64,000 nucleotides of DNA, taken from NCBI GenBank assembly GCA_965202805.1, contig OZ241869.1, positions 1,056,001 to 1,120,000 of the forward strand, read 5' to 3'. This stretch comes from Longimicrobiales bacterium. GTDB taxonomy: Bacteria > Gemmatimonadota > Gemmatimonadetes > Longimicrobiales > Gaopeijiaceae. The number at the start of each line of letters is the position of its first letter. Position 1 is the stretch's first letter. Under the pieces are notes generated by a model. The model saw only the letters and a program-made list of their open reading frames with translations, did no database searches and was not told the DNA's origin. The position numbers and the translations under genes were made by a program. Below, piece after piece: positions 1 through 48,635 of this stretch.

Positions 1-307
1 AGCCCAGTTCCTCGGCGACCAGAACCCCCAGCACGAGGATGGCGTCGGTGGAGCCGAGGACGATGGCGGCCGGTGCGACGTCGTTGCGCAGCAGCTCGAG
101 CATGATGGCGCTGGAGGAACTGGAGCCGATCGCGCGCTCCATGACCAGGATGCGGCCGCTCAGGGATTCGCCGTATTGCGGGTGCCGGGGATCGGAGACG
201 CGTCCGGTTTCGGGATCCACTCCTCCCCAGAAGCTGAGGGGGCGCTCGAGCACGAGCAGCCGGCCGCGGCCTTCCCCAGGGTGTACGGGGATGCCGGTCA
301 GCTCCAC
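1..307 (-). CDS. Aconitase X swivel (small) subunit, DUF126; 3' end runs off the window
   Basis: Manual translation from GTG at 307: MELTGIPVHPGEGRGRLLVLERPLSFWGGVDPETGRVSDPRHPQYGESLSGRILVMERAIGSSSSSAIMLELLRN. The LSFWGGVDP and GSSSSS motifs are typical of DUF126. Lies downstream of the AcnX large subunit. Confidence 0.85.
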   Translation of the reverse strand, partial: MELTGIPVHPGEGRGRLLVLERPLSFWGGVDPETGRVSDPRHPQYGESLSGRILVMERAIGSSSSSAIMLELLRNDVAPAAIVLGSTDAILVLGVLVAEELG

Positions 308-392
308 AGGCCCTCCGCGCGCGCCTCGGTGCACCGTCGCCCGCCTCGTTCCCCCGCGAACATGGACCGCCCTGTCAGCTCCACAGGCCCTC
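297..392. repeat. 19-bp direct repeat gtcagctccacaggccctc (297-315 and 374-392) duplicating the acnX stop / DUF126 start junction
   Basis: Exact match read in the sequence; period 77 bp. Confidence 0.9.
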
Positions 393-1679
393 GTCGCGGG
401 TGACGCGTCCGGTCACGGCCGAACGCACGCAGTCCTCCAGGCTGCCGTAGACGACGTCGTAGCCGGTGGTGGCGGGGGTGTAGTGCGCGAACTTCCCGGA
501 GTTGGTCATCAGCGCGCTCCCGCGGGCGGGCAGAATGGGCGCGACCACGACGCAGGTGTCGGCCACGATCTCGACCCCGGCCTCCTCGAATCGCGGCAGG
601 CGTCCGCTCGCCTCCAGCCGCTGGACCTCGACCCTTCCCGTGCAGACGTAGAAGGGAATCCTGAAAGGCTCCTGCGGAAGCAGCCCCTCGAGGAGTGAGA
701 ACTCGTCCCGCGAAAAGTGCGGGCTGCCCAGCGCCACCGCGTCGATCTGCTCCGTGCCCGTTGTGCTGAGCGCGTCCCGCACCCGCCGGAGTTCGCTTGC
801 GCCGGGGGCGAGAACGGCGTCTGGTGCCTCCCCGCCGAGCGCCGCCGCGAGATCCGGGGCCTCCGGGGTGACGCCTTCGACGTGGAAGAGCCCGACCGCG
901 CCGGACGACGCCGACGCCGCCCCCATCGCCTTCAACTGGTCCTCGGTCACGGTCTCGGGGAGTCCGGTGACGACCGCGACCCGCTCGCCGACCGTGGCCC
1001 CGAGCCAGGTGCCCAGCACCGGGTAGAACACGTCACGCTCCTTGAGCACCGGGTTGATCGCACCGGTGTCCACCACCACCGTGGCCCGCCGGTTCTCCTC
1101 GAGGTGGAGGCCGGTGCGGGGTGCGCGGCCCGCCAGCGCACAGCAGATGTCCATGAAGTCGCCGTAGCGGTTGGTGCGGCCGCCGAGCACCGAGTTGGCG
1201 AAGACCACGGCGTTGCTCTCTCCCCAGGCGACGTCCTGACCGCGCCGCGGCCGGTGCCCCGCCTGGTAGGGCGCGCAGGTCCAGGTCGGGCGGCAGCCCA
1301 GGTTCTCGTAGGCCCTCATCTGGCGGAGCGCCATCTCCCGGCGATGGCCGGCGGAACGCACCCGGCGCGGGTGGAGCAGGTCGAGGGCCCCGACGTTCAG
1401 CGTGGTGGGCACGGCCACCTTCCCGCCAAGGGAGACGAGCCGCTCGGCGAACTCGACGCCGCCGTCGCCGTGATGGAGGCAGCCGTCGATGTGGGCGGAG
1501 GCCACGGGCACCAGCTCCCGGGCCCCGAGGATGCGCGCCATGCGCACCACGATGCGCATCGCCAGCTGCGGCGCGGGACCGCGTGCGCCGCTCAGGACCG
1601 CGCGTTCTTCGTCAGAGAGGGTCGGGGAGGCCGGCGCCGTGATCACGGCCTGGTCGCGTGCGCGCATCTCAGGACTCAT
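375..1679 (-). CDS. Aconitase X catalytic subunit (DUF521; cis-3-hydroxy-L-proline dehydratase-like)
   Basis: Motifs SAHIDGC, TCAPYQ, WGESNAVVFANSVLGGRTNR, GSPHFS, DTC, TNSGKFAHY. Start placed at ATG 1679. Confidence 0.85.
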   Translation of the reverse strand: MSPEMRARDQAVITAPASPTLSDEERAVLSGARGPAPQLAMRIVVRMARILGARELVPVASAHIDGCLHHGDGGVEFAERLVSLGGKVAVPTTLNVGALDLLHPRRVRSAGHRREMALRQMRAYENLGCRPTWTCAPYQAGHRPRRGQDVAWGESNAVVFANSVLGGRTNRYGDFMDICCALAGRAPRTGLHLEENRRATVVVDTGAINPVLKERDVFYPVLGTWLGATVGERVAVVTGLPETVTEDQLKAMGAASASSGAVGLFHVEGVTPEAPDLAAALGGEAPDAVLAPGASELRRVRDALSTTGTEQIDAVALGSPHFSRDEFSLLEGLLPQEPFRIPFYVCTGRVEVQRLEASGRLPRFEEAGVEIVADTCVVVAPILPARGSALMTNSGKFAHYTPATTGYDVVYGSLEDCVRSAVTGRVTRDEGLWS

Positions 1680-1720
1680 TGCTCTCCGGTGAACGGCCTC
1701 ATTGCTTTCCGGTGAACGGC
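1675..1720. repeat. 23-bp tandem duplication (1 mismatch) spanning the hutI stop / acnX start junction
   Basis: ctcattgctctccggtgaacggc followed by ctcattgctttccggtgaacggc. Confidence 0.9.
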
Positions 1721-2961
1721 GCCCGGTCGTACACCTCCCCACCCCGCACCACGGTCCGGCAGGGGTTGGCGCCGATCCAGTAGCTCAACTCCGCCGGATG
1801 GTCCACGTCCCAGAGCGCCAGGTCCGCGCGCATGCCCGGCGAAACTACGCCCACCTCCCCCTGCAGGCCCAGCACCGGCGCGGCGTGACGCGTCATCCCG
1901 GCCAGCGCTTCCTCGGGCGTCAGGCCGAAGAGGACGCAGGCCATGTTCATCGCGAGCAGCGGGGATGTGACGGGCGACGAGCCGGGGTTCAGGTCGGTCG
2001 CGACCGCGATGGGCACGCCGTGACGCCGCAGCGCGTCCACGGGCGGCCGGCGGGACTCGCCCAGAGTGTAATACGCCCCGGGCAGAAGGACCGCAGTGGT
2101 CCCCGCGGCGGCCAGTGCACGGCAGCCGGCGTCCGTCGCGTACTCCAGGTGGTCGGCGGAGCGGGCGCGATACCGGGCGGCGAGTTCGGCCCCGCCAAGG
2201 GATGAGAGCTGGTCGGCGTGCAGGCGCACCGGCAGCCCATGGGCGGTGGCTGCTTCGAAGACGCGCGCGCACTCCGCCGGAGTGAAGGCGATGCCCTCGC
2301 AGAACCCGTCCACGGCGTGCGCGAGGCCTTCGGCGGCCGCGCGCGGGATGACCGTCCCGCATACCAGGTCGAGATAGGCGTCACGGCGGTCCTCGTACTC
2401 GGGCGGCAGCGCGTGCGCGGCGAGGAGAGTGCGCGATACGCCTGCGGCGAGGCGTTCTCCCAGGGTGCGGGCTACCCGCAGCATCCTCAGCTCGGTGTCG
2501 ACATCAAGGCCGTAACCGGACTTTATCTCAACCGTGGTAACGCCATGCGCGACAAGAGCTTCAAGTCTCCATGACGATGTATTGTAGAGCTGCGTTTCGG
2601 TCGCTGCCCGGGTCGCCGCCACGGTCGAACGGATGCCGCCACCAGCCCGTGCGATCTCCTCGTAGCTGCTGCCCCGCAGGCGCATTTCGAATTCACCCGC
2701 GCGCGTACCCGCAAATACGAGATGGGTGTGACAGTCGATGAGCCCGGGGGTAAGCCACCCACCTGCTCCGTCCAGGGTGCGGGAAGCGCCCGCAGTCGCC
2801 TCGCGGGGAGCCGCGCGCGCAGCCCCAACCCACGTGATTCTCCCACCGGCGACCGCCACCAGTCCATCGCGCACCACGCCGTATGCCTCGCCCGTGTCCG
2901 CCATGGTGGCGACATGGACGTTGCGGATCAGCAGGTCCGGCGCGCCGGGCTTCCCGTTCAG
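1699..2961 (-). CDS. hutI: Imidazolonepropionase; start uncertain, probably CTG at 2961
   Basis: [56 protein letters not shown] motifs. Divergent from hutF. Confidence 0.9.
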
Positions 2962-2973
2962 ATCATCCTCCCG

Positions 2974-3022
2974 TCTGCCATTTTGGCAGACTTTTTCGCG
3001 TAGCCTGCCATTTTGGCAGACT
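2974..3022. promoter_or_regulatory. Two copies (period 30 bp) of the palindrome (T)CTGCCA-TTT-TGGCAGA; candidate operator in the hutI/hutF divergent region
   Basis: ctgccattttggcagact at 2975-2992 and 3005-3022. The function is inferred from position. Confidence 0.5.
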
Positions 3023-3198
3023 CCATGACCGTTGTCTGCGCGCCGCGCCAGCGCAAATGCCAACCCGGCGCCACGACACTTGTTCAAGATAGCGCGTGCC
3101 CCGGGTTCGTCCCGCAGGCGCGTCGCGGCCGCCCTGTCCGGCGCTTCCCTCACCGAACCCGACGTCTCGACGTGTCGGGCGCGCATGAACCTTGTTCG

Positions 3199-3234
3199 TT
3201 GACCGCACCCCCGTTCCCGAGTACCGTCCCGCCC
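3199..3234 (+). promoter_or_regulatory. Sigma70-type promoter for a leaderless hutF transcript
   Basis: TTGACC (3199-3204), 17 bp, TACCGT (3222-3227), 7 bp, ATG 3235. No SD sequence. Confidence 0.6.
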
Positions 3235-4614
3235 ATGCACGCCCTCTACTTCGATCTGGCGCTGCTGCCCGGCGGCTGGGCGCGCGATGTGCGCGTCGAG
3301 CTGTCCCCCAACGGTGATTTCGGGGAGATACTGCCCGGCGGAACCCCGGAAGGAACACAACGCGTCGCCGGCGCGGTCGTTCCCGGCATCCCCAACGTGC
3401 ACTCCCACGCATTCCAGCGGGCGATGGCGGGTCTCACAGAGCGCGGCAGCACGGCCGAATACGGGTTCTGGAGCTGGCGCGAGCAGATGTACGCCTTTCT
3501 GGCGCATCTTTCGCCGGACGATGTGCAGGTCATCGCGTCGCAGCTCTATGCCGAGATGCTGCGCCACGGGTACACCGCGGTGGCCGAGTTCCACTACCTG
3601 CGCAACGACCCGGGGGGGCGGCCCTACGCCATGCCCCACGAGATGGCCCTGCGCCTTCACGAGGCCGCAGCCGCCGCCGGGATCGGGCTGACGCTGTTGC
3701 CCGCGCTCTACCGGGTCGCGGACTTCGGGGCGGACGCGCCGCTTGCGGAGCAGCGCCGGTTTGTCGCCACGGTCGACGAGATCATCGCCGACAGCGCCGC
3801 GCTCCGGCGGGAGGTCGCGGGGGACGGCAATCGCCGCATCGGCCTGGCGCTGCACTCGTTGCGGGCGGTGCCCCCCGGTGACCTGACCGACGCCGTCACG
3901 GCACTGGAGGCAGCCGACGCCGACGCCCCCATACACATCCACGTCGCCGAACAGGTGACCGAGGTGCGGGCGTGCCTGTCCTGGAGCGGGGCGGCCCCGG
4001 TCGAGTGGCTGCTCGACCACGCGCCGGTCGACGGCCGCTGGTGCGCGGTGCACGCCACCCACATGACCGGGGAGGAGACGCGCGCTCTGGCCGCCTCGGG
4101 CGCGATAGCGGGGCTCTGCCCGACCACCGAGGCCAACCTGGGCGACGGGGTCTTTCCGCTCGCGAGCTATCTGGTCGCCGGCGGCCGGTGGGGGGTGGGG
4201 AGCGACTCCCACGTCAGCGTCAGCCCGGTTGCGGACCTGCGGATGCTCGAGTACTCGCAGCGGCTCACCATGCACGAGCGCAACGTCGCCGGAGGTCGCA
4301 AGGCTCACTCAACGGGGCGGGCCCTGCTGGAGGGCGCCTGGGCGGGGGGCGCTCAGGCGAGCGGACGGCGGCTGGGCGCGATCCGACCGGGATTCCGCGC
4401 CGACCTGGTCGTCCTCGACACCGACCATCCAGCCCTGGTGGGGAAGGATGAGGACCGGCTGCTCGACGCCTGGATCTTCAGCGGCGAGGACACCCCCGTG
4501 CGCGACGTGATGGTGGGCGGCGCCTGGGTGGTGGAGGACGGGCGCCACCGCGGGCAGGAGGAGATCGCGACCGCGTACCGGGCGGTAGCGCGGAAGCTCG
4601 CCGCCAGCCTCTAA
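3235..4614 (+). CDS. hutF: Formimidoylglutamate deiminase
   Basis: [63 protein letters not shown] motifs. Confidence 0.93.
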
Positions 4615-4699
4615 GTTAGCTAGATTAGCTAGATCGCCTGGAAGCAGCGTTCCAGCGAGATCTGTCTCGGGAGGGTCGTGTCGGGCGCGCCTCGCTACG

Positions 4700-5353
4700 C
4701 TACCCCTGCATCGGCACGCTCTGCGTGCGCACGATCAGCTCGATGTCCCAGATGGCCTCGGCCACCGCTCGCCCGATCAGCTCCATGCGGCGCACGTCGC
4801 TGATCCGCGACTGGACGTTCTTCAGTTCGCGTTTAGACAGCAGCCACTTGAAGATCCCGCAGGCATCCGCGAGCGCGATGATCACGATGTCGCGCGGATC
4901 GGGGATCATGTCGCTGAAGAGCACCTCCATGATGCGCAGCTTCACCTCGCGTTCCGCCTTGCCGTCCACGACCGGATAGCGCCGCGAACGGAAGACCCAC
5001 AGGAAGCGCTCGTCGTGGCGCGCCAGGATGCCCTTCGAAACCAGCCGCTCGAGCGCGGTCTCGCGGATGTCGGCGGCGCGGCCCGCGGCGTGTTCCACCC
5101 AGTAGCGCGCGTCGTGGGCGTCCTCGGCGCGTGCGATCTCCTCCAGCATCGGATCCAGCAGGCTGTCGCCGAGCGGCGTCGCGTCGACCAGGTAGAGCCT
5201 CTCCAGATCGGTGTCGACGCGGTTCTCGAGCGCCAGGTCCATCAGCACGCCTCCCCCGAGGGCGTAGTTGAGCGACCAGCTGGGGACGTGCGCGAACGTG
5301 CCGTTCTCGTCATCGAGCAACAGCAGCAGGATCTCCTCGGCGAATCTCAACAC
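4700..5353 (-). CDS. GPP34 (GOLPH3/Vps74-like) family protein
   Basis: Starts MLRFAEEILLLLLDDE; contains LGGGVLMDLALENRV, LERLVSKGIL, FRSRRYP. GGAG SD upstream of GTG 5353. Confidence 0.75.
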   Translation of the reverse strand: MLRFAEEILLLLLDDENGTFAHVPSWSLNYALGGGVLMDLALENRVDTDLERLYLVDATPLGDSLLDPMLEEIARAEDAHDARYWVEHAAGRAADIRETALERLVSKGILARHDERFLWVFRSRRYPVVDGKAEREVKLRIMEVLFSDMIPDPRDIVIIALADACGIFKWLLSKRELKNVQSRISDVRRMELIGRAVAEAIWDIELIVRTQSVPMQG

Positions 5354-5402
5354 GGCGGCTTCTCCCCTGGGGTCTTTGGCGCCGAAAAAGCAACTGCGGT
5401 CA

Positions 5403-6347
5403 TTATGCCTTGTTTCCCGATGAACGGGAACCCGTTCCCTCTCCGGGTCGCAAGCCCCGGCCCCGGGACTCCGGTCGCAGCGACTCCATGAATCCGTCCG
5501 ACAACCGCCCCGCCGCCACCGCCTGCACCGGCCCCAGCAGCGTGACCTCCAGCTCCCGGGAGACATTCACCTGCAGCGTGCCGCCCTCCATGCGCACCTC
5601 GATGTCGCCGTAGTCCACCAACCCGCGCCCGGCCGCCGCCACCGCCGCCGCACACGAACTGGTCCCGGAGGCCCGGGTGTACCCGACACCCCGCTCCCAG
5701 ATGGCGATTTCGACGCAGCCGCGCGCGACGGGCCGGGCCAACTGCACGTTCACGCCCGCCGGGAACGCTTCGTGGGCCGTCAGGAAGGGACCCAGGCGGG
5801 AGAGCGCGGCAGCGGACAGGTCGCCGGTGAACACCACGCAATGGGGGTTGCCGACGCTCACCGGGCTGCAGTCGAGCGTCCCCTCCGCCGGGTGGGCGAG
5901 CGGCCGCCCCCGCCACTCGGACGCAAGCCCCGCATCGGCGGGGTCCAGCGACGCGCGTCCCATCTCGACCGATACGTCGTGGACGCCACCTCCCAGGCTC
6001 CTCTCCACGCGCATGCGCACGCGGTCCCCCCCGACCTCCACCGCGAAGGCCTCGCCCCCGACCCAGCCCCGCGACGCCGCGTACGCCGCGAAGACGCGCA
6101 GCCCGTTGCCGCTCCGCTCGAACTCCGAGCCGTCCGGATTGAACATCCGCAGGCGCCAGGGACGCTCCTCCGGCGGCGAGTGCAGGACGATGCCGTCGGC
6201 ACCCACGCCCCGCCACCGGTCACAGACGGCGCGCACCGCCCCCGGCGATGCGGCCCATCCGTCCCCGAACGGAAAGACGAGATAGTCGTTGCCCAGGCCG
6301 TGGCCCTTGAAGAAGCCGGCCCCCGCGCGCGGGCGGCCAGCGGTCAT
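5403..6347 (-). CDS. dapF: Diaminopimelate epimerase-fold protein with Ser at both catalytic Cys positions
   Basis: KGHGLGNDY, GVGADG, FNPDGSEFERSGNGLR, VGNPHCV, WERGVGYTRASGTSSCA. ATGA overlap with the pdxH stop. Confidence 0.75.
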   Translation of the reverse strand: MTAGRPRAGAGFFKGHGLGNDYLVFPFGDGWAASPGAVRAVCDRWRGVGADGIVLHSPPEERPWRLRMFNPDGSEFERSGNGLRVFAAYAASRGWVGGEAFAVEVGGDRVRMRVERSLGGGVHDVSVEMGRASLDPADAGLASEWRGRPLAHPAEGTLDCSPVSVGNPHCVVFTGDLSAAALSRLGPFLTAHEAFPAGVNVQLARPVARGCVEIAIWERGVGYTRASGTSSCAAAVAAAGRGLVDYGDIEVRMEGGTLQVNVSRELEVTLLGPVQAVAAGRLSDGFMESLRPESRGRGLRPGEGTGSRSSGNKA

Positions 6348-6997
6348 GGATGGAGCCGCCGGGTGCTCCACCCGTCCTCCTCGCGCTGGAATACCAGCCG
6401 GTCATGGAGCCGATCCGCGCGCCCCTGCCAGAACTCGATGCGCTGCGGATCGAGCCGGTAGCCGCCCCAGAAATCGGGCAGAGGCACGTCCCCGCCCTCG
6501 AACCTCCGCTCCAGCTCGCGCACCCGCCGCTCCAGCGCCGCACGCTCCTCCAGCGGCTCGCTCTGCCGCGACGCCCACGCGCCGATCTGGCTCCCGCGCG
6601 GCCGGGTGCGGAAATAGGCGGCCGCCACCTCGGGACTCAGCTGCTCCACCCCGCCCTCGATGCGCACCTGGCGCTGGAGCACGCCCCAGTGAAAGCAGAG
6701 GGCGGCCCGGGGGTTCGCCGTCAACTCGTCCGCCTTGCGGCTGCCCAGGTTGGTGTAGAACTCGAACCCGTCCTCGCCGAACCCCTTGAGCAGCACCATG
6801 CGCGCGCTGGGAGCGCCATCGGCGGACGCGGTTGCCAGCGTCATCGCCTCGGGCAGCACAATGCCGGCCTTGCGCGCGGCGTCGAACCACTGCCCGAAGA
6901 GCTCGACGGGATCCAGTCCCGGATCCACATCCGGGAGCCCGCGGGTCAGGCCGCGTCCAAGCGAGAAGACCAGGCGCAGGTTCGATTTGAGCGACAT
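6344..6997 (-). CDS. pdxH: Pyridoxamine 5'-phosphate oxidase
   Basis: AMTLAT, PSARMVLLKG, FYTN, RQVRIEG, YFRTRPRGSQIGAWAS, WGGY, EFWQGRADRLHDR. Confidence 0.95.
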   Translation of the reverse strand: MSLKSNLRLVFSLGRGLTRGLPDVDPGLDPVELFGQWFDAARKAGIVLPEAMTLATASADGAPSARMVLLKGFGEDGFEFYTNLGSRKADELTANPRAALCFHWGVLQRQVRIEGGVEQLSPEVAAAYFRTRPRGSQIGAWASRQSEPLEERAALERRVRELERRFEGGDVPLPDFWGGYRLDPQRIEFWQGRADRLHDRLVFQREEDGWSTRRLHP

Positions 6998-7006
6998 GAC
7001 AGTATG

Positions 7007-8263
7007 CTATCGTCGAAAACGCGCCGGGCAAAACGGCTCCAGGCGCGGGTCCCCGGCACCCGCAACCTGGTTGGCGACCATTTCGCCCGTAACCGCCGAC
7101 AGCGTGAGCCCGAGGTTGCCGTGCCCCACCGCCGCCGAAAGGCCGGCCACGTCGCCGAGAGGGCCGACGAAGGGCAGCCCGTCCGGCGACATCGGCCGCA
7201 GACCGCACCACTCCGACACCGGCGGAGCGTCGCCGAGGGCGGGCAGCCAGGCACGGGGCTTCAGCGCAAGCTGCTCGAGCCGGACGGGGTTCAGCTCCAG
7301 GTCGTAGCCGGCGAACTCCATCGTCCCCACGAAACGCACCCGCCCCTCCAGCGGCGTACAGATGATGCCCGTCTCGCGGTTGGTGCAGGCGACGCGCATG
7401 GCGGGCGCGCCCCCGGGGCCCACCCCGACCTCGCGGTGGTACCCTTTACCGGGCTGAACGGGGAGACGGCACCCGGCCTGCCGGGCGAGCGCCAGGCTGA
7501 AGGGACCGGTGGCCAGCACGACCGCGTCGGCCGTGACCCGCTCGCCATCGGCGGTCTCCACCCCCCGCACCGCCCCACCCGCGAAGGTGATGCGCCGCAC
7601 CGCCACGCCCTCGCGGATGGAGACGCCCCTTCGCCGGGCGGCATCCGCCAGACCGAGGAGGAAGAGCCAGGGGTCCAGGATCCGGGTCTCCGGGAACAGG
7701 ACGCCACCCGCCACCCGGGGACCGAGCGCCGGCTCCAGCTCACGCGCCTGACGGCCGTCCACGACCTCGGGGTGGTAGCCGTGCTCCCGCATCAGCGCGG
7801 CGTCCTCACGCGCCTTCGCCATCGCCTTCCCGCCGACGCAGACCTCCAGGTAGTGCCCGCGCCGGTAGTCGCAGGCGATGCCTTCCTCTTCCACGATGGC
7901 GTCGAAGCACGCGAGCGTATCCAGTCCCAGCGGCGCCAGCGTCTCCAGGCAGTGCCGTTCGTGCCGGCGGGTGCAGTGCCGTGCGAACGCGGCCAGCCAT
8001 CGCCAGACGTCCATGTCCCGCCGCGCACGCACGTACAAGGGACTCCGCGCATCGAAGATGTGCGGCAGCGCCTGCCGGACCTTGCCCGGCCGGTTCAGCG
8101 GAGGATGCCCGGCGGCCACGATCCCGGCGTTGCCCCGCGAGGCGCCGGCCCCGATCCCGTTGCGCTCGAGAACGACCACATCCGCCCCGCGTCGCGCCAG
8201 ATACCAGGCCGAGCAGAGGCCGACGAGGCCTCCGCCTGCGACGACGACGCGGGAAGTGGACAT
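7007..8263 (-). CDS. FAD-dependent oxidoreductase, D-amino acid dehydrogenase (DadA-like)
   Basis: GGGLVG Rossmann motif, ASRGNAG, PGKGY, WCGLRP, GHGNLGLT. Confidence 0.85.
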   Translation of the reverse strand: MSTSRVVVAGGGLVGLCSAWYLARRGADVVVLERNGIGAGASRGNAGIVAAGHPPLNRPGKVRQALPHIFDARSPLYVRARRDMDVWRWLAAFARHCTRRHERHCLETLAPLGLDTLACFDAIVEEEGIACDYRRGHYLEVCVGGKAMAKAREDAALMREHGYHPEVVDGRQARELEPALGPRVAGGVLFPETRILDPWLFLLGLADAARRRGVSIREGVAVRRITFAGGAVRGVETADGERVTADAVVLATGPFSLALARQAGCRLPVQPGKGYHREVGVGPGGAPAMRVACTNRETGIICTPLEGRVRFVGTMEFAGYDLELNPVRLEQLALKPRAWLPALGDAPPVSEWCGLRPMSPDGLPFVGPLGDVAGLSAAVGHGNLGLTLSAVTGEMVANQVAGAGDPRLEPFCPARFRR

Positions 8264-8479
8264 GGCGGCTGCGGGAGGCTGTGGGTGATCGGGGTGCGTC
8301 CGCCCGCCCTACCTTGGGCGCCCGCAGGCTGTTCCCTCCTCGGCACAACGGGGCGCGCGCCGCACTTCGGCGGCGTCGCCGATCTCCCTGTCACGGTGGC
8401 GAGCAGGTGGCGGAAGACGGGCGTGACGCGGTATATAGTACGCTCTGGATGCCAATCAACCTGAACACGGCCACGCGCG

Positions 8480-9677: not shown

Positions 9678-11306
9678 ATGACGGATCACGACAAACAGAC
9701 CAGCCCGCGCGCGCGCGCCATCGGGTTCTGGCTCGGGGCGGGCTGCTTCCTGCTGCTGCTCGCCTTCCCCATCGATCCGGGCAACCTGCCCGCGAGCCGC
9801 CTCGCCGCCGTCGCGAGCCTGATGGCGATCTGGTGGGTGAGCAACGCGCTTCCGCTCTTCGCGACCGCCATTCTTCCGCTGGTGCTCTTCCCCCTGCTGG
9901 GCATCATGTCCGGGAACGATGTCGCGCCGGTCTACTTCAACAGCACGATCGTCCTCTTCCTCGGAGGGTTCATGATCGCGCTGACGATGGAGAGGTGGAA
10001 TCTCCACAAGCGCATCGCCCTCGGCATCATCCACGCGGTGGGCGGCGGACCTCCGCGCATCATTCTGGGCTTCATGGTGGCGGCCGCCTTCCTCTCCATG
10101 TGGATTTCCAACACGGCCACCGCGGTGATGATGGTGCCGATCGGGCTCGCGATGGTGCTCCAGGTCGAGGAGACCGCCGGCGCCCGGCAGTCGCGCACGT
10201 TCACCATCGCCCTCATGCTCGGCATCGCGTACGGCTGTTCGATGGGCGGGCTGACGACGCTGGTCGGAACCCCTCCCAACCTGTCCTTCCAGCGCATCTT
10301 CCAGATCATCTTCCCCGAAGCGCCTCCCATCGACTTCGGCACCTGGATCGTGCTGGGCCTGCCGATCGGGGTCACGATGCTCGCGGTGGCCTGGCTGCTG
10401 CTCACACAGGTCCTCTATCGCCCATCGCCGGAAATCCGGATCGAGCGGGATGTGCTCGAGCGCGAACGCGCCGGCCTGGGCCCGATCTCCTTCGAGGAGC
10501 GCTCCGTGGCGACCGTCTTCGCCATGACCGCGCTGCTCTGGGTCTTCAGGCGGGATCTGGAGCTCGGTTTCGCCACCGTTCCCGGCTGGTCGAACCTCCT
10601 CCCCTTCCCCGGGATGATCGACGACGGCACCGTGGCGATCGCGATGGCGTCGGTGCTGTTCTTCATCCCGACCCGCAACCGGGCGCCGCGCGATGCCGGC
10701 GTCAAGGCTCCGGACGCGACCTCGCGGTGGCGGGCGCTGATTCGCTGGGCGACCCGTTTCGGGACCGCGAACCGCGTAATGGGCGCCGAGGTGATCCCGC
10801 GCCTGCCCTGGAACATCGTCCTCCTCTTCGGCGGAGGGTTTGCGCTCGCGGCCGGCTTCCAGGGCACCGGGCTCGCCAACATCATCGGGAATCAGTTCCA
10901 GGGACTCGGCGGGCTGCCGGACTTCGTCGTCATCCTCCTGGTGTGCCTGACCCTCACCTTCCTCACCGAGCTGACCAGCAACCTGGCCACCACGGAGATG
11001 ATCCTCCCCATCCTCGCCTCGGTGGCGGTGCTCACCGGGATGAACCCGCTGATGCTGATGGTTCCGGCGACGCTGTCCGCCTCGTGCGCGTTCATGATGC
11101 CGGTCGCGACGCCTCCCAACGCCATCGTCTTCGGCAGCGACCGCATTTCGGTTGGGGAGATGGCGCGCGCGGGCATCTTCCTGAACCTGATCGGGGCGCT
11201 TGTGATCGCCACCCTTGTGCTGACGCTGGGAGAGACCGTCTTCGGCATCGAATCGGGCGTGATGCCGGAGTGGGCGACGGAGATGGCGGGCGAGGTCGGC
11301 GGCTGA
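9678..11306 (+). CDS. SLC13/DASS sodium:dicarboxylate/sulfate symporter, copy 1
   Basis: Multi-TM protein; LSMWISNTAT, GTPPN, LFGGGFALA, ELTSN, MMPVATPPNA. Confidence 0.9.
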   Translation: MTDHDKQTSPRARAIGFWLGAGCFLLLLAFPIDPGNLPASRLAAVASLMAIWWVSNALPLFATAILPLVLFPLLGIMSGNDVAPVYFNSTIVLFLGGFMIALTMERWNLHKRIALGIIHAVGGGPPRIILGFMVAAAFLSMWISNTATAVMMVPIGLAMVLQVEETAGARQSRTFTIALMLGIAYGCSMGGLTTLVGTPPNLSFQRIFQIIFPEAPPIDFGTWIVLGLPIGVTMLAVAWLLLTQVLYRPSPEIRIERDVLERERAGLGPISFEERSVATVFAMTALLWVFRRDLELGFATVPGWSNLLPFPGMIDDGTVAIAMASVLFFIPTRNRAPRDAGVKAPDATSRWRALIRWATRFGTANRVMGAEVIPRLPWNIVLLFGGGFALAAGFQGTGLANIIGNQFQGLGGLPDFVVILLVCLTLTFLTELTSNLATTEMILPILASVAVLTGMNPLMLMVPATLSASCAFMMPVATPPNAIVFGSDRISVGEMARAGIFLNLIGALVIATLVLTLGETVFGIESGVMPEWATEMAGEVGG

Positions 11307-11373: not shown

Positions 11374-13005
11374 ATGACGGATCATCGACCACCGACCAGC
11401 CGCCGGACGCAGGCGATCGGCTTCTGGCTCGGCCTGGGCTGCTTCCTCCTGCTGCTGGCCTTTCCGGTGGATGCCGCCAACGCGCCCGCAAGCGGCCTCG
11501 CCGCCGTCGTGAGCCTGATGGCGATCTGGTGGGTGAGCAACGCGCTCCCGCTCTTCGCGACCGCCATTCTTCCGCTGGTGCTCTTCCCCCTGCTCGGCAT
11601 CATGTCCGGGAATGAGGTCGCGCCCGTCTACTTCAACGGCACGATCGTCCTCTTCCTGGGAGGGTTCATGATCGCGCTCTCCATGCAGAGGTGGAACCTG
11701 CACAAGCGCATCGCCCTGGGCATCATCCACGCCGTGGGCGGGGGACCGGCGCGCATCATTCTCGGCTTCATGGTGGCGGCCGCCTTCCTCTCCATGTGGA
11801 TCGCCAACACCGCCACCGCCGTGATGATGGTGCCGATCGGGCTCGCGATGGTGCTCCAGGTCGAGGAGACCGCCGGCATCAGGCACTCGCGCACGTTCAC
11901 GGTCGCCCTCATGCTCGGCATCGCCTACGCCTGTTCGATGGGCGGTGTGACGACGCTGGTGGGAACCACTCCCAACCTGTCCTTCCAGCGCATCTTCCAG
12001 ATCATCTTCCCCGAAGCGCCCCCGATCGAGTTCGGCACCTGGATGGTCCTGGCCACGCCCGTCGGGATCACGATGGTCGCGGTGTGCTGGTTCATGCTGA
12101 CCCAGGTCCTCTATCGCCCATCGCCGGAAGTGCAGATCGACCGGGACGTCCTCGCGCGCGAGCGCGCCGGGCTCGGTCCGATCTCGTTCGAGGAACGCTC
12201 CGTGCTGATCGTCTTCGCCATCACCGCGGTGCTGTGGATCTTCCGGCGGGACCTGGAACTCGGCTTCGGAACGATTCCGGGCTGGTCCAACCTCCTTCCC
12301 TTCCCCGGGATGATCGACGACGGCACCGTGGCGATCGCCATGGCGGCGGTCCTCTTCTTCATACCGACCCGGAACCAGCCGCCGCGCGGGCCGACCGGGG
12401 CGACGGCCGCCCGCGTCCCCGGGTGGCTGAAGCCGCTGCGCCGGGCAGCCCGTTTCGCAAGCGCAAACCGTGTCATGGGCGCGGAGGTGATCCCGCGTCT
12501 GCCGTGGAACATCGTGCTCCTCTTCGGAGGAGGCTTCGCGCTCGCGGCCGGTTTCACCGACACCGGGCTCGCGAACATCATCGGGAATCAGTTCCAGGGA
12601 CTGGGCGGGCTGCCGCCCTTCGTCGTCATCGTCCTGGTGTGCCTCACGCTCACCTTCCTGACCGAACTGACCAGCAATCTGGCCACCACGGAGATGATCC
12701 TCCCCATCCTGGCTTCGGTGGCGGTGGTGACGGAGATGAATCCGCTCACGCTGATGCTCCCCGCGACACTGTCCGCGTCGTGCGCGTTCATGATGCCGGT
12801 CGCGACGCCGGCCAACGCCATCGTCTTCGGCAGCGACCGCATATCGGTCGGAGAGATGGCGCGCGCGGGCATCCTGCTGAACCTGATCGGGGTGGTCGTG
12901 GTCACCACGGTGGTGATGCTGCTGGGAGAGGCGGTCTTCGACTTCGACCGGGGGGTCATGCCGGACTGGGCGACGGGGGCCGCCGGGGGCGAGGTCGGCG
13001 GGTAG
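11374..13005 (+). CDS. SLC13/DASS symporter, copy 2 (tandem paralog)
   Basis: Collinear and closely similar to 9678-11306, with motif variants WIANTAT, GTTPN, ATPANA. Confidence 0.9.
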   Translation: MTDHRPPTSRRTQAIGFWLGLGCFLLLLAFPVDAANAPASGLAAVVSLMAIWWVSNALPLFATAILPLVLFPLLGIMSGNEVAPVYFNGTIVLFLGGFMIALSMQRWNLHKRIALGIIHAVGGGPARIILGFMVAAAFLSMWIANTATAVMMVPIGLAMVLQVEETAGIRHSRTFTVALMLGIAYACSMGGVTTLVGTTPNLSFQRIFQIIFPEAPPIEFGTWMVLATPVGITMVAVCWFMLTQVLYRPSPEVQIDRDVLARERAGLGPISFEERSVLIVFAITAVLWIFRRDLELGFGTIPGWSNLLPFPGMIDDGTVAIAMAAVLFFIPTRNQPPRGPTGATAARVPGWLKPLRRAARFASANRVMGAEVIPRLPWNIVLLFGGGFALAAGFTDTGLANIIGNQFQGLGGLPPFVVIVLVCLTLTFLTELTSNLATTEMILPILASVAVVTEMNPLTLMLPATLSASCAFMMPVATPANAIVFGSDRISVGEMARAGILLNLIGVVVVTTVVMLLGEAVFDFDRGVMPDWATGAAGGEVGG

Positions 13006-29900: not shown

Positions 29901-31271
29901 CAGCGAAACGAGGGCGGCCCTGTCGGCCGCGTTGCACAACGGCCCCTCGTACCGCTCCACCCGGTTCAGCCATTCGACGAACCCCGTGGTTCCCGGCGCA
30001 CAGAGTCCCGCGTTTCCCGGGAACCAGAACTCCCTCAACTCGTCCAGTTGCAGGAAGCTGGACGGGATGGAGCCCGTAAGGCCGTTCGAGGCCAGCCACA
30101 GCCGCTGCAGGTTGGCGAGGCCGCCCAGTTCCGGTGGGATGGAGCCCGTAAGGCCGTTCGAGGCCAGCCACAGCCGCTGCAGGTTGGCGAGGCCGCCCAG
30201 TTCCGGTGGGATGGAGCCCGTAAGGCCGTTCGCGCCCAGCGACAGGTTCTCCAGGGTGGCGAGTCCGCCCAGTTCCGGCGGGATGGAGCCCGTCAGGCCG
30301 CTCGAGCCCAGCAACAGGTTCTTCACGCTGGCGAGGCCGCCCAGTTCCGGCGGGATGGAGCCCGTCAGGAGGTTCGGGCCCAGCGACAGCGTCTGCAGGT
30401 TGGCGAGTCCGCCCAATTCCGGCGGGATGGAGCCCGTCAGGGCGTTCAGGCCCAGCCACAGGCTCTCCAGGTTGGCGGGTTCGCCCAGTTCCGGCGGGAT
30501 GGAGCCCTCCAGGTCATTCGCGCTCAGCGACAGCGTCTCCAGGCTGGCGAGTCCGCCCAATTCCGGCGGGATGGAGCCGCTCAGGCCGTTCCAGCCCAGC
30601 GATAGCGTCTTCAGGCTGCCCAGTCTGCCCAGTTCCGGCGGGATGGAGCCCGTCAGGTCGTTCACGGCCAGCGACAGGACCTCGAGGTTCGCGAGGCCGC
30701 CGAGTTCCGGTGGGATGGAGCCCGTCAGCTCGTTCCAGCGCAGCGACAGCGTCTTCAGGCCGGCGAGTTCGCCCAGCCCGGGCGGGATGGAGCCGGTCAG
30801 GTCGTTCCGGCCCAGCGACAGCGTCTCCAGGCTGGCGAGTCCGCCCAACTCGGGCGGGATGGAGCCCGTCAGCCCGTTCCGGGCCAGCGACAGCGTCTCC
30901 AGGTCGCCGAGCCCGCCGAGCTCCGGCGGGATGGAGCCGGTGAGGCCGTGTGTAGCCCATTCCTGGGTGGCCCGGTCCAGCTCGCCGGCGAGATCCAGAC
31001 CCACAACCCGTCCGGAGGCGTCCGTCTCCACCCCGTACCACTCGCCCGTCGGCGCGTCCGTCAGCCAGTTCTCGCTGTCGACCCAGTTCGGCCCGTCGGT
31101 CGCGTTGTAGAGCGCTATGAGGATGTCACGATCGCTCATCGTTGTGGCCGACGGCGACGCGCTCGATTCGGAAGCGGACACGACGGCCTCCGGGGGAGCG
31201 ACCACCGGCTCGTCGCCGCACGCTGCAAGGAGCACCATCGTGAGCACGGACCCGCGTCTCCCCGGAGTCAC
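26967..31271 (-). CDS. Large lipoprotein with three capped LRR blocks, a zinc metalloprotease domain and a conserved C-terminal domain
   Basis: LAAC lipobox; three DRxxLxxLY/H...GxNW...W cap modules; LTGSIPPELG repeats; HEFGHNRNLYH and DFMSY Met-turn. GTGA overlap with the upstream gene. Confidence 0.85.
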   Translation of the reverse strand: MTPGRRGSVLTMVLLAACGDEPVVAPPEAVVSASESSASPSATTMSDRDILIALYNATDGPNWVDSENWLTDAPTGEWYGVETDASGRVVGLDLAGELDRATQEWATHGLTGSIPPELGGLGDLETLSLARNGLTGSIPPELGGLASLETLSLGRNDLTGSIPPGLGELAGLKTLSLRWNELTGSIPPELGGLANLEVLSLAVNDLTGSIPPELGRLGSLKTLSLGWNGLSGSIPPELGGLASLETLSLSANDLEGSIPPELGEPANLESLWLGLNALTGSIPPELGGLANLQTLSLGPNLLTGSIPPELGGLASVKNLLLGSSGLTGSIPPELGGLATLENLSLGANGLTGSIPPELGGLANLQRLWLASNGLTGSIPPELGGLANLQRLWLASNGLTGSIPSSFLQLDELREFWFPGNAGLCAPGTTGFVEWLNRVERYEGPLCNAADRAALVSLHELAGGANWTDPEGWLGAGALEEWHGVSVDSLGRVTALDLTGNGLSGRLSWKMGELAQMTELRIADNADLSGRLPLSLAGLSLRTLHYSGTELCAPAEEVFRAWLGGIPSHEGTGEECALFPDREALGVLYKTTGGPNWSESGNWLTLAPLGAWHGVRTDADGRVTSLDLRANGLEGPIPAELGGLARARLVDLSGNELSGPVPAEIGGLASVEGLFLDGNELTSVPPELGELGNLRELVLNFNRLTSLPPELGRLSRLEALGLWSNELTTIPPELGQLGNLKELDLDENRLTSLPAELAGLKRLEILWAESNQLAFIPPDLGALTRLRRLVLVGNRLTDMAVEPGGYPGLRVLDLSSNEFASFPRALAELGNLRQLELDGNGLTDVPPGLGGLARLEILDVSSNELSGPLPAGLVEFTGLTSLSLADNVGLTGALPLDLTALEVLEDLHTAGTELCAPADPAFLDWLEGVTRQRVALCDRGGDAAAYLTQAVQSREFPVPLVAGEPALLRVFVTAKQANDATMPPVRATFYQDGAVTYELDIPATQDPIPASVDESSLSKSVNAEIPGWVVQPELEVVIEPDPEGTLDPALGVAGRIPATGRMAVDVRAMPVFEVTLVPFIWEENPDSSIVEITAAMAADPAGHELFERTHLLLPVAQMDVTAHAAVASPTNNGFEILRLTEMIRVAEGGRGHYLGLMAGPTVPSDLRGVANDIGNWSSFSVLDSETIAHEFGHNRNLYHAPCGGAAGPDRYYPYRNGSIGAWGYDFRAGELVPPEQPDFMSYCTPTWTSDYQFTNALRYRLETETSSIIVVAADTRAAASSRTLLVWGGLDGEGAPYLEPAFFIDAPPALPSSGGAWWLTGRDAAGAELFSVSLGMAEYTDTEDDHAGFTLALPVTWTGQLASISLQGPGGSAILGRNTDAPVTILRDAATGRIRGILEGPPRAAPAAGAAAAAGGQGFEVLFSRGIPDAGNERR
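30064..30950. repeat. 72-bp tandem array of about 12 LRR units, with two exactly identical units (30064-30135, 30136-30207)
   Basis: gggatggagcc recurs every 72 bp. Confidence 0.92.
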
Positions 31272-32377
31272 TGCGGACGGCCCGTTGGCGGGGGGGAGAC
31301 GACCCGGACCCGCATGCCCGGGCTGCGGTCGGCCGACTCCCGGGCACCGGACGCCCCGGTGATCGTCAGGCGAACACCCTCCGAGCAGTTGTTGCGCGCG
31401 TCGAACTCCTCCATCACCGGATCGACGCACACGCCGATGTAGACCGTTCCCCGGGCGCTGCCCCGGTCAGCCGAGATCGCCAGCAGGAATGTGTAGTCCT
31501 GCGAGGGCGCAAGCGGTGGAAAGGGGGCTGAACGGAGTTCGGTGTCGCGAATGCTGATAGTGGGGTTCGTCGACCGCATGGCGCGGATCGTCGTTGCCTC
31601 CGACACATCGGAGCCCTGGTTGCGGATGCCGAACGTCAACGTCGTCGAATCGCCCGGCGTCAGCGTAGCGGCGATCGGCGACCGGGCCGTGAACGCCAGG
31701 TCCGGACCCGGCGCGACGACAGCGATGTGGCCGCTCAGGGTATCGCCGAGGCCGGAGGGGTCGGTGGCCGTCACCTCGATCGTGACCGAACCCGGGGACA
31801 GGGCGGTGATCGTCACTTCCGAGCCGGAGACGGAAACCGCAGCCACCGCCGGGTCCGACGAGGACACCGCGTAGCTGAGCGCGTCGCCGTCAGGGTCGGC
31901 GAAGTAGGGCGATACGTCGAGTCTGGCCGTGTCGCCGACCAGCACCGTCCGGTCCTCGATCGCGCCCGCCGCCTCCGGCGCCCGGTTGGGGACGGTGGCC
32001 TCGAAGGTCTGCACGGCGCTCAGGCCGGCGGGATCGGTGGCCGTCACCGCAACGCTGGCGGAGCCCGCTGCCACCCCGGCGACGGTCAGGGTGGCGCCCG
32101 ACACCGAGACCGCGGCGACCGCGGCGACCGACGACGCGGCCGTGTAGCTCAGCGCGTCGCCGTCGGCATCGGTGAAGTAGGACGAGAGATCGAGCGCGGC
32201 CGTATCGCCCACGTTCACGGTCTGGCCCGGAATCGAACCTGCCGGCTCGGGCGCCCGGTTCGCCGGCGCCGGTGCCGTCGGCGCTTCACCATCACCGCAT
32301 CCGGCGACGCACACGGCCATGAGCACAACCCCCGGCCAATGCCTCGCGCAGACCCGGAATCGATCATCTGCGGCCAT
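31268..32377 (-). CDS. Lipoprotein with two cadherin/Ig-like repeats and a CARDB-like domain
   Basis: VAGC lipobox; two NRAPE...YFxDxDGDALSY...ATDPxGL repeats; PDL...IRNQG...CVDPV.E...NNCS. Confidence 0.8.
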   Translation of the reverse strand: MAADDRFRVCARHWPGVVLMAVCVAGCGDGEAPTAPAPANRAPEPAGSIPGQTVNVGDTAALDLSSYFTDADGDALSYTAASSVAAVAAVSVSGATLTVAGVAAGSASVAVTATDPAGLSAVQTFEATVPNRAPEAAGAIEDRTVLVGDTARLDVSPYFADPDGDALSYAVSSSDPAVAAVSVSGSEVTITALSPGSVTIEVTATDPSGLGDTLSGHIAVVAPGPDLAFTARSPIAATLTPGDSTTLTFGIRNQGSDVSEATTIRAMRSTNPTISIRDTELRSAPFPPLAPSQDYTFLLAISADRGSARGTVYIGVCVDPVMEEFDARNNCSEGVRLTITGASGARESADRSPGMRVRVVSPPPTGRPQ

Positions 32378-40296: not shown

Positions 40297-40390
40297 CCTG
40301 ACTCTGCCGCAGGTGTCTCTGCCCGCCGCCCGACCGGCTTCGAGCGCCGCCACCAGCCGGAGGGGCAGGTGGCCGTGCGTGTACTTCCGA

Positions 40391-40777
40391 CTACCACCGG
40401 CTGGGTTTTCGGATGTTTGTGCCCGGAATGGGATCCGGCAGTTGAGAGTTCGCCAACGCATTGGGACGGATATGTCTCAAGAAGTGGGCATGCGCTCTGA
40501 GTTGCTGCGATGATCTGCCAGTTCCGGGTGTCAGCAGACCGATTCGTATGCTGTGATGCAGCCTCACGAGGCGCATCGCCTCCGCGATGTCGCTGTCGTT
40601 GGTGACTACGACCGCGCAGTCGTAGGCTTTACGCCAAGCATCATTCAAGAGATGTACGGCGAGGTTGACGTCCGAGCCCTTCTCCTCCGTCTTGATCACC
40701 TCAGCCATGCGGGTTCCGCCCACCGGCCGTTTCAGGGGTGCCCAGACTGCGTGGCTTAGGAAGTACACCTGCCGCAA
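40391..40777 (-). pseudogene. NYN (LabA/DUF88, PIN-like) nuclease lacking most of its N-terminal half
   Basis: Retains EEKGSDVNLA, VVVTNDSD and SQLPDPI, but lacks the N-terminal acidic DGxN motif. 128 aa. Confidence 0.75.
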
Positions 40778-40868
40778 AAAGCAAGGGCCCCCGAAGAGGC
40801 CCCGCGCCCTGCGGTCGAGACCGCAAGGGGTGTCACTGTTAGTCTACGCTGCTAGCAGCGAACGTCAA
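40778..40868 (-). promoter_or_regulatory. Promoter and two-hairpin leader or attenuator upstream of NYN
   Basis: TTGACG-16-TAGACT with a 14-bp palindrome in the spacer; hairpins ccttgcggt-ctcg-accgcaggg and gggcctc-ttcg-ggggccc, followed by ttgcttttt. Confidence 0.65.
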
Positions 40869-40935
40869 GTCCGATGCCTGCCCTGGTGTCGCGGAACCGC
40901 ACCGGGCTATGCCGGTCTTCGCGCATCGCGCCCAC

Positions 40936-42896: not shown

Positions 42897-42985
42897 GAGC
42901 CTTCCCGGAATAACGGCCCCGGAACCGGAAAGTTCCTGACGGCCGGACGCCCGTCGCTGTTCGGACCGGACGCGCCTCCGGTTAG

Positions 42986-42997
42986 TATACTGACGCC
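42986..42997 (+). promoter_or_regulatory. -10 element TATACT 6 bp before the metH ATG (leaderless)
   Basis: tagTATACTgacgccATG; no SD sequence. Confidence 0.55.
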
Positions 42998-46729
<3,732 letters not shown>

Positions 46730-46784
46730 GCGTGGCGTTGCCCGACCTGCGCCCGGACGGGCATGCCCGGGAGGTCAACCGCCG

Positions 46785-48635
46785 GTGAGCGTGACTCTGC
46801 GCGACCTGATCGCCGACGGGCGCGCCCACGTAATGGACGGCGCCATGGGCACGATCCTCTACGGGCGGGGCGTCTTCGTGAACGTCTGCTACGACGAGCT
46901 CAACGTCGAGCAGCCGGAGATGGTGCGGGAGGTGCACGAGGAGTACGTCCACGCCGGGGCCGAAGTCCTGGAGACCAACACCTTCGGCGCCAACCCGGTG
47001 AAGCTGTCCGGCTTCGGCCTGGACTGGCGCACCGAAGCCATCAACCGGGCTGGGGCGGAGCTGGCGCGCGAGGCGGCCGCGGGAAGGGCGAGCGTGGCGG
47101 GCGCGGTGGGCCCGCTCGGCATCCGCATCGAGCCCTGGGGGGCGACGTCCGTCGAGGAGGCCGTGGATTTCTTCCGGCGGCAGGTGCAGGGGCTGCTGGA
47201 GGGCGGCGTGGACGGGTTCTGCCTGGAGACCTTCAGCGACCTGAGCGAGCTCGAGGCGGCCTTCCGGGCGGTGCGCTCGCTCACCGACCTGCCGGTGCTG
47301 GCCCAGGTCACCATCGGCGAGGACGGCGCCACGCCGGGAGGCACCACCATGGAGGCCGCCGGGGCGGCGATGGCGAAATGGGGGGTGGAGGTAGCCGGGA
47401 TAAACTGCTCGGTGGGGCCGGCGATCATGCTGGACGCGGTGGAGCGCCTGGCCGCGAGCTCCGGGCTGCCCGCCTCCGCCCAGCCCAACGCCGGGCTGCC
47501 GCGGGTGGTCGAGAACCGCCAGATCTACATGGCCAGCCCGGAGTACATGGGCCAGTACGCCCGCCGCCTGATCGCCGCCGGCGCGCGCTTCGTGGGAGGA
47601 TGTTGCGGCACCACGCCGGCACACTTGCGCAAGATCCGCGACCACGTGGCCACCGTGCAGCCGGTCCGCGTCCGGGCAGCCGCGCGCGCCGAGCCCGCCG
47701 GACTGCCGGGCCGGTCCGGGGCGCCGCTGGCCGAGCGGTCGGCGTGGGGAAGGAAGCTCGCCGCCGGGCAGTTCGTCACCACCGTGCAGATCGCCGCCCC
47801 GCGCGGCTGGCGGATGGAGGAGACCACCCGCAGGGCACGCGCGCTGGCGCGCGACGGGGTAGACGCGGTCTTCGTGGTCGGCGGCACCCGCGGACAGGCG
47901 CACATGGACGCCCTGACCACGGCCATGCTGCTCGGCGCCCGCGCGGGAATCGAGCCGCTGGTGCGCTACGTCTGCCGCGACCGAGACATGCACGGCATGA
48001 TCCGCGACCTGCTGGGGGCGTCTGCCGCCGGCATCCGCAACCTCGTGATCGTGAGCGGCGAGTCGACCAGCCTGGGACCCTACGCCGACTCCACCGCGAT
48101 CTCCGACATCGACTCGATCGGTCTGGTGAACGTGGTGCAGCGCCTGAACCGCGGCCTGGACGCGGGCGGCAACGACATCGGCGCGCCCACCGAACTGGTG
48201 GCCGGGGTCTCCCTCGACCAGGCCGCGGCGGACCAGGCCCTCGAGCTCAGCCGCTTCGCGTGGAAGGTGGACGCGGGGGCGGATTTCGCGGTCACGCGGC
48301 CCATCTTCGACGCCCGGCGCCTGGAGGACTTCCTGGCGCGCGCCGGCACCGACATCCCCGTGATCGCGACCCTGTTTCCCCTCGCCTCCCTGCGCAACGC
48401 CGAGTTCATGGCCAACGAGGTGCCGGGCGTCGAGGTGCCGGACAGGATCGTGCAGAGGATGCGGGCGGCCGAGCGGAGAAGCCCGGCGCGGGCCCGCGCG
48501 GAAGGACTGGCGATTGCGCGGGAGATGTTCGCCGGGGTGCGGCACCTGGTGCGCGGGGTGCGCATACGCCTCCCCGACGACGACCTGGGCCGGGCGTCCG
48601 AACTGCTCGGCTCACTCGAGGCGGAGCGGGGGTAG
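46785..48635 (+). CDS. yitJ: Homocysteine S-methyltransferase / MTHFR-like fusion (YitJ-like) with a divergent MTHFR domain
   Basis: DGAMGT, GINCSVGP and GGCCGTTP in the N-domain; CRDR and NAEFMANEVPG in the C-domain. Confidence 0.85.
   Translation: MSVTLRDLIADGRAHVMDGAMGTILYGRGVFVNVCYDELNVEQPEMVREVHEEYVHAGAEVLETNTFGANPVKLSGFGLDWRTEAINRAGAELAREAAAGRASVAGAVGPLGIRIEPWGATSVEEAVDFFRRQVQGLLEGGVDGFCLETFSDLSELEAAFRAVRSLTDLPVLAQVTIGEDGATPGGTTMEAAGAAMAKWGVEVAGINCSVGPAIMLDAVERLAASSGLPASAQPNAGLPRVVENRQIYMASPEYMGQYARRLIAAGARFVGGCCGTTPAHLRKIRDHVATVQPVRVRAAARAEPAGLPGRSGAPLAERSAWGRKLAAGQFVTTVQIAAPRGWRMEETTRRARALARDGVDAVFVVGGTRGQAHMDALTTAMLLGARAGIEPLVRYVCRDRDMHGMIRDLLGASAAGIRNLVIVSGESTSLGPYADSTAISDIDSIGLVNVVQRLNRGLDAGGNDIGAPTELVAGVSLDQAAADQALELSRFAWKVDAGADFAVTRPIFDARRLEDFLARAGTDIPVIATLFPLASLRNAEFMANEVPGVEVPDRIVQRMRAAERRSPARARAEGLAIAREMFAGVRHLVRGVRIRLPDDDLGRASELLGSLEAERG

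Follow-up and report, generated by a model that had tools for sequence, protein, structure and literature searches.

Duplicated stop/start junctions in a Longimicrobiales genome and their probable role as relays of translational coupling

Three gene junctions in a 64,000-nucleotide (nt) stretch of a Longimicrobiales genome (contig OZ241869.1; G000:C1:1056001-1120000; hereafter, the window) carry tandem duplications of an overlap between an upstream stop codon and a downstream start codon: those of acnX with the gene for its swivel subunit, of hutI with acnX, and of metH with yitJ. At each of them, the start overlapping the upstream stop opens a short open reading frame (ORF), hereafter a bridge, that ends at a stop overlapping the downstream start. 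Comparison with related genomes led us to conclude, at a probability of roughly 0.68, that the junction duplications left spacers whose frame links stop to start and that these are likely throw-away relays preserving translational coupling. The pattern is best explained by a common mutation on which purifying selection acts to preserve coupling rather than peptides, because the bridges display no codon-position constraint and precise losses of the inserts recur; duplications that break the ribosome hand-over were likely weeded out. Judging from the sequences, the persisting features are the frame and the two overlapping ends, not a peptide, a structure, or a shared element. The window genome (G000), that of a sponge-dwelling bacterium, is a single contig of 4.02 Mb with a G+C content of 68.4%, and sponge metagenomes from several studies are among the DNA runs containing the window stretch.

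The first bridge (298..384, minus strand; 28 aa; period 77 bp) lies between acnX, encoding the aconitase X catalytic subunit (375..1679, minus strand; Pfam PF04412, E = 1e-136), and the gene for the AcnX swivel (small) subunit, DUF126 (1..307 and beyond the window edge, minus strand, GTG start at 307; PF01989, E = 7e-28; NCBIfam PRK03955 below its cut-off). Both of its ends are 10-nt overlaps with a GTG seven bases ahead of a TGA; the GTG of the bridge lies over the acnX stop and its TGA over the swivel-subunit start. Approximately 50 nt of the 77-bp unit resemble the downstream head, and the last 15–20 nt resemble the upstream tail. The acnX start is likely the ATG at 1679, as suggested by the ATGA overlap and the relatives. 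The second bridge (1676..1702, minus strand; 8 aa, MRPFTGEQ; period 23 bp), with ATGA at both ends, connects this start to the imidazolonepropionase gene hutI (3' 400 codons at 1699..2898, minus strand, start not fixed; TIGR01224, 452 bits against a cut-off of 298). Its second copy differs by one base, which improves the Shine-Dalgarno match. The third bridge (46726..46788, plus strand; 20 aa; period 59 bp), with GTGA at both ends, connects metH, the cobalamin-dependent methionine synthase gene (42998..46729, plus strand; TIGR02082 and PRK09490, above cut-off), to a yitJ-type gene for a bifunctional homocysteine S-methyltransferase/methylenetetrahydrofolate reductase (46785..48635, plus strand; PRK08645, 594 bits against a cut-off of 453). 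The 59-bp unit is a diverged copy of the yitJ head (39/59 bases), its likeness to the metH tail being confined to the last dozen bases, and a GGAGG motif lies 10 nt upstream of the yitJ start. These matches upheld the gene names, by NCBIfam cut-offs for hutI, metH, and PRK08645 and by Pfam for AcnX and its swivel subunit.

An earlier reading of the window from its letters alone (the sequence-only reading) had reported these duplications with periods that are all 2 mod 3 and open frames of 28, 8, and 20 codons from upstream stop to downstream start, and we verified the places, the periods, and the frames at all three junctions. Its description of the bridges as chimeric holds for the 77- and 23-bp units, in which a downstream head is joined to an upstream tail, but not for the 59-bp unit, which is mostly a yitJ-head copy. 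Gap-free contigs across the inserts were found in four other runs of four studies, four of the contigs containing the 59-bp insert and three the 77-bp insert; these independent contigs ruled out an assembly artefact. The 23-bp copy was present in three outside contigs and absent from one 98%-identical contig (run X11), in which hutI runs directly onto the acnX ATG, showing that this copy is a recent polymorphism. None of the substitutions listed for the 59-bp bridge of the outside contigs creates a stop, and one of them changes the yitJ GTGA to ATGA, preserving both start and stop.

Much of this arrangement follows from geometry. A duplication spanning an overlap leaves both genes intact whatever its length, so such duplications accumulate at junctions. 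A length of 2 mod 3 at a 1-, 4-, or 10-nt overlap yields a mini-ORF that passes through the head of the downstream gene and then the tail of the upstream gene, both in their native frames, and that ends on the start of the second copy; 4230 of 4271 simulated fresh duplications of this class were open. A length of 0 mod 3 produces an N-terminal extension (4043/4306 open). With one of 1 mod 3, a ribosome that re-initiates crosses the true start in the wrong frame, a dead end unless a second step rescues it (456/4263). The stop-free state of the bridges had been noted by the sequence-only reading. Stop-freeness is no evidence because it exists by construction, 99% of fresh 2-mod-3 duplications being already open. 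Neither openness nor the three 2-mod-3 cases proves selection; the test is therefore whether dead ends are missing.

Junctions of the window genome were compared with those of two relatives, G002 and G001, with both genes of a junction required within one 20-kb stretch at ≥60% identity. This gave 902 comparisons, with some junctions counted in both relatives. We use RTGA for an overlapping ATG or GTG start with a TGA stop, and call a junction linked when it shows a bridge, an in-frame extension, or a two-step relay. Among uncoupled spacers with changed length, the frame change was random (104/102/99). In contrast, 28 of 30 junctions were linked in a looser set, defined by a direct overlap in one genome and a changed frame with RTGA kept in the other. 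A strict set, with the downstream anchor within 50 nt, comprised 117 junctions, of which 36 were longer in the other genome. All 20 lengthened junctions that retained RTGA were linked (12 bridges, 6 extensions, and 2 two-step relays); the six extensions bear out the earlier caveat that 0 mod 3 also preserves coupling. The absence of dead ends among these 20 has a probability of 4e-4 under uniform lengths and approximately 2e-3 under microhomology-weighted lengths. The 16 lengthened junctions without RTGA were distributed 4/8/4 for mod 0/1/2, and lengths of 1 mod 3 thus occurred in 8/16 of them versus 2/20 with RTGA (p = 0.011). In addition, the length changes of bridged spacers were multiples of three in 12/19 and 12/18 cases, against 80/218 and 72/216 for uncoupled spacers. 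A count limited to junctions bridged in both genomes, with every change a multiple of three, is circular and carries no weight here. The claim that bridge ORFs are retained to preserve coupling therefore stands in part: spacers opened at overlapping junctions stay linked far above chance and uncoupled ones do not, but the stop-free state carries no weight in this.

It is improbable, in our estimation, that mutation alone produced this pattern, through duplications at in-phase microhomologies whose frames, in DNA this rich in GC, are open by construction and which persist with no selection on frame. Matching words between upstream tails and downstream heads do favour the observed class, yielding 2 mod 3 in 39% of cases at 3-mers, 48% at 6-mers, and 56% at 8-mers. 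The 59-bp breakpoint falls where the metH tail and yitJ codons 16–20 resemble each other in phase, and the recurrence of precise losses is also compatible with mutation alone. However, approximately 26% dead ends would be predicted, against the 0/20 seen (p = 0.002). Both 1-mod-3 cases are two-step relays, for which the expectation is approximately 11% each, and frame-preserving secondary indels are not predicted.

As an observation beside these comparisons, the junction of pdxH with a DapF-like gene (window 6344-6347, minus strand) is a direct ATGA overlap. At this junction a 29-bp bridge (10 aa) is present in G001, and the spacer of G002 is 121 nt longer and unlinked.

The survey of the whole window genome agreed with a link between frame and overlap. 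Of 2799 gene stops, 40 are spanned by a repeat scoring ≥12, which is more than chance would give: among 1435 within-gene control triplets there were 9 such repeats, all nine in frame. The sequence-only reading had proposed a genome-wide tabulation by mod 3. Over all stop-spanning repeats of the genome the distribution is near uniform (17/12/11), without skew; a skew is confined to stops that a start overlaps, repeats with an overlapping start in both copies being distributed 13/2/4 (mod 2/1/0) versus 11/12/9 without (p = 0.02 for mod 2 and 0.05 for mod 1). The three repeats in the window are the three top-scoring 2-mod-3 cases of the genome, and hence the window overstates how visible such repeats are. 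After gene pairs with a coding score <30 or a gap >400 nt were dropped, 1902 of 2173 remained, and 474 of these 1902 close co-directional pairs overlap directly. Among the non-overlapping pairs in which an ATG or GTG lies over the upstream stop, the frame thus opened ends on the downstream start in 106/157 cases, against 529/1271 (36–45% per cell) in the other 11 cells (p = 9e-10). The excess over background corresponds to approximately 40–55 bridges per genome, most of which now have no visible repeat. Multi-step relays from several tandem copies were also seen, with 17 + 35 nt at G000:C1 2500374 (minus strand), with 53 + 17 nt at locus L046 of G001, and at G000:C1 1032949 (plus strand), where a 22-bp repeat is 1 mod 3 and its frame nonetheless ends in an 8-nt overlap with the next gene.

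The three window junctions were further compared among 18 congeners of one genus; G004 gave no yitJ match, and among 19 acnX loci three lacked an upstream hutI and one a swivel match. Between metH and yitJ, 12 of 18 congeners have inserts (59 bp in seven, 53, 56, and 116 bp in one each, and 107 bp in two that are unlike each other), and the remaining six have a plain GTGA overlap. All 12 inserts have a length of 2 mod 3, and in each of them the overlapping start opens a frame that meets no stop before a TGA lying over the yitJ start; the yitJ frame is also stop-free in all of them. The series reflects few events, namely one old 59-bp gain followed by changes of −3, +48, and +57, plus a second 107-bp form, and all of these later length changes are frame-preserving. 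In G011, the metH stop has shifted onto the next GTGA. In flanking-gene trees (outgroups G019 and G023; drawn with a midpoint root), the insert-free G001, G014, and G008 are nested inside supported insert-bearing clades, and the insert must therefore have been lost exactly, or replaced by recombination, at least three times. The acnX–swivel junction is a plain overlap in 16 of 18 congeners and a 77-bp bridge in two, G013 having the same insert as the window. The hutI–acnX junction is linked in 14 of 16 congeners: some have a direct overlap, some an in-frame extension (27 or 45 nt), and others a bridge (23, 32, or 74 nt); a 32-nt bridge in G013 and G005 corresponds to a 33-nt in-frame extension in G000.

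Two observations accompany these comparisons. The nearest relatives vary by gene (G001 and G006 at yitJ, G013, G005, G011, and G014 at acnX, 94–95% in both cases), hinting at recombination within the genus. Records L186 and L189, titled Gammaproteobacteria, encode YitJ proteins 89% identical to that of the window, as Gemmatimonadota congeners do, and their titles look mislabelled.

The bridge peptides themselves showed no sign of purifying selection. In 13 pairs of equal-length bridges, substitutions by codon position were 52/45/38, compared with 26/22/101 in the upstream gene, and the seven 59-bp inserts gave 0.32/0.38/0.23. The absence of codon-position constraint speaks against a functional small protein or leader peptide. 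No folding signal was found in the three bridges relative to mononucleotide shuffles (z = −0.31, 0.34, and 0.77). The Shine-Dalgarno duplex, calculated with the genome's own 16S end, did change from the original tail to the freed copy, from −6.4 to −10.0 kcal/mol at the acnX–swivel junction, from −3.5 to −6.6 kcal/mol at hutI–acnX, and from −1.5 to −11.5 kcal/mol at metH–yitJ. The gain at these three junctions is the only support for tuning as such and also favours independent initiation of the downstream gene; tuning is unproven. No significant general trend of this kind was found in 23 paired direct/bridged events (p = 0.33 and 0.94). We consider it very unlikely that the bridges were selected as regulatory devices, controlling the downstream gene through their peptide or through pausing. 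In favour of such devices are the Shine-Dalgarno gain at all three window junctions and the 59-bp family, which is old and occurs widely across the genus; the unconstrained peptides, the missing folding signal, the insert-free states nested in insert-bearing clades, and the paired Shine-Dalgarno test all argue against them.

A somewhat less remote, though still unlikely, explanation is that the downstream gene starts by itself from a Shine-Dalgarno sequence in the spacer, with 1-mod-3 spacers purged only because out-of-frame ribosomes block the true start. A GGAG(G)-like motif precedes the yitJ start in all 12 metH–yitJ inserts and is absent from the metH tail. On the other hand, such purging still requires re-initiation at the first copy. 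A Shine-Dalgarno sequence also assists re-initiation, according to the relevant passages of PMC6728339, so that its presence does not separate the two explanations, and the figures for bridges as a class are diluted by chance bridges. Moreover, an overlapping ATG or GTG that opens a bridge was retained more often (30/34) than one that leads to a dead end (11/21; p = 0.005).

Several points weigh against the relay interpretation. The retention of bridge starts becomes borderline without direct-overlap relatives (20/24 versus 11/21, p = 0.05; in the reverse comparison, 17/21 versus 12/24, p = 0.06). Starts behind bridges (61 cases) have a median duplex energy of −6.8, as strong as that of direct overlaps, and bridge starts one of −4.1, no better than control positions; with Shine-Dalgarno sequences this strong, many of the downstream genes could initiate independently. 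In-phase microhomology, a mutational cause, accounts for part of the 2-mod-3 excess, and the mod-3 counts alone do not reject such a bias (p = 0.17 and 0.22). Two of the 30 junctions in the looser set are dead ends, and chance accounts for about half of the 106 apparent bridges, the background being 42%. In G001 and G006 (L036 and L037), the hutI–acnX spacer is an open frame from CTGA to CTGA without an ATG or GTG overlap, suggesting either decayed coupling or re-initiation at CTG. As to the material, the large-scale comparison covered 2.8 Mb of relatives (2.4 Mb out of 4.5 Mb from G002, plus 0.4 Mb from G001), the 2940 gene calls come from our own hexamer model with no published annotation behind them, and the congeners are not independent of one another.

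Relaying by bridges would fit what is established on coupling elsewhere. According to the passages on gene overlaps in PMC6728339 and PMC10666635, reporter work in E. coli and Haloferax demonstrated that genes overlapping in this way are coupled and that a gap of 20–40 nt abolishes the coupling; because re-initiation drops so steeply with distance, a spacer would need a bridge. We propose that dead ends are purged, that later indels are mostly frame-preserving, and that the peptide drifts freely, as the relatives suggest. The resulting state would be near neutral and reversible, because exact insert loss recurs. A stronger Shine-Dalgarno sequence in the freed copy ahead of the downstream start, seen at no junctions other than the three of the window, would offset the extra re-initiation step.

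The bridges would work much like mycobacterial interspersed repetitive units (MIRUs; original paper, Supply et al. 1997), one of the closest known systems. In the passages of two reviews that treat them (PMC12548453 and PMC3184786), MIRUs are short junction spacers (approximately 40–100 bp) with a small ORF overlapping its neighbours by 4 nt, expression being thought little disturbed, and they constitute one dispersed family of 40–50 copies with 4-nt direct repeats and internal inverted repeats. The insert sizes of 53, 59, and 77 bp and the overlap geometry are similar, and all three bridges have a small ORF over the upstream stop and the downstream start. The idea that a MIRU-like mobile repeat targeting RTGA junctions left the spacers behind as its footprints is nevertheless largely refuted here and, in our judgement, extremely improbable. 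Each window unit copies its own flanks, the spacers are local copies of their own junctions, and no dispersed homologous family was found: only 8 of 79 spacers, none from the window, have a second genomic match (E<1e-3), and cross-matches among spacers span 13–33 nt. Empty and filled sites exist here, but the repeat far exceeds 4 nt since the unit copies the flanking genes. G+C-rich internal inverted repeats or hairpins were not found in the three bridges, as the folding z scores above indicate.

The junction geometry is the same as that of termination-reinitiation coupling at ATGA/TGATG in PMC6728339 and PMC10666635, the stop/start overlap being 4 nt at bridges 2 and 3 and 10 nt at bridge 1. 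Those papers treat direct two-gene overlaps, and a text search of PMC6728339 gave no passage on duplication or on short or small ORFs. Short ORFs that deliver ribosomes, with a peptide that matters little, are described in excerpts on integron ORF-11 in attI1 and the attC short ORFs (PMC8876359), the latter described as entered by re-initiation from the preceding gene, and on bicistronic designs (PMC12548453). In these accounts, ORF-11 and bicistronic leaders recruit ribosomes by their own Shine-Dalgarno sequences, whereas the bridges here have weak ones; the bridges, unlike the integron and bicistronic ORFs, arise by ordinary duplication in housekeeping operons. A full-text literature search, in a library with few subscription papers, returned reviews of MIRUs, integron ORFs, and coupling but no account of relay ORFs that arise from duplicated junctions. 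Since the principle has precedents, no new kind of system is claimed; what is gained is generality and ease of testing.

Other features of the window are as follows. Positions 375-8179 group hutI, a divergent hutF, the AcnX pair, a GPP34-domain gene, a DapF-like epimerase gene, pdxH, and a D-amino-acid dehydrogenase-like gene, which may form a cluster for amino-acid catabolism; the AcnX pair matches cis-3-hydroxy-L-proline dehydratase below the cut-off. At 9678-11306 and 11374-13005 (plus strand), two paralogous genes for sodium:sulfate symporters (DASS), near-equal in length, stand in tandem. A large leucine-rich-repeat protein with a weak peptidase M66 match is encoded at 26967-31430 (minus strand), with 12.3 copies of a 72-bp unit (30063-30949), next to an Ig/CARDB/PKD-domain gene. 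Three copies of a 34–37-bp unit (48663-48777) lie between yitJ and an amino-acid permease gene.

The relay interpretation explains how overlapping genes may drift apart without losing coupling. If it is true, small-protein surveys would take a predicted class of translated mini-ORFs for microproteins, though only the frame matters. More tentatively, and with less than even confidence, junction duplication with a relay mini-ORF might be a general, reversible bacterial route for rewiring operon stoichiometry, in which coupling would be maintained by the bridge and the freed copy, relieved of encoding the upstream protein, could evolve a new ribosome-binding site. On that reading, genomes would hold tens of unannotated, translated, sequence-free mini-ORFs (40–55 here). 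Matched natural alleles are available within the genus (plain overlap, one bridge, and two-step relay), and the 23-bp copy varies even within one species. Such alleles could show how often a ribosome can re-initiate and at what cost, in a coupling mechanism that is still argued.

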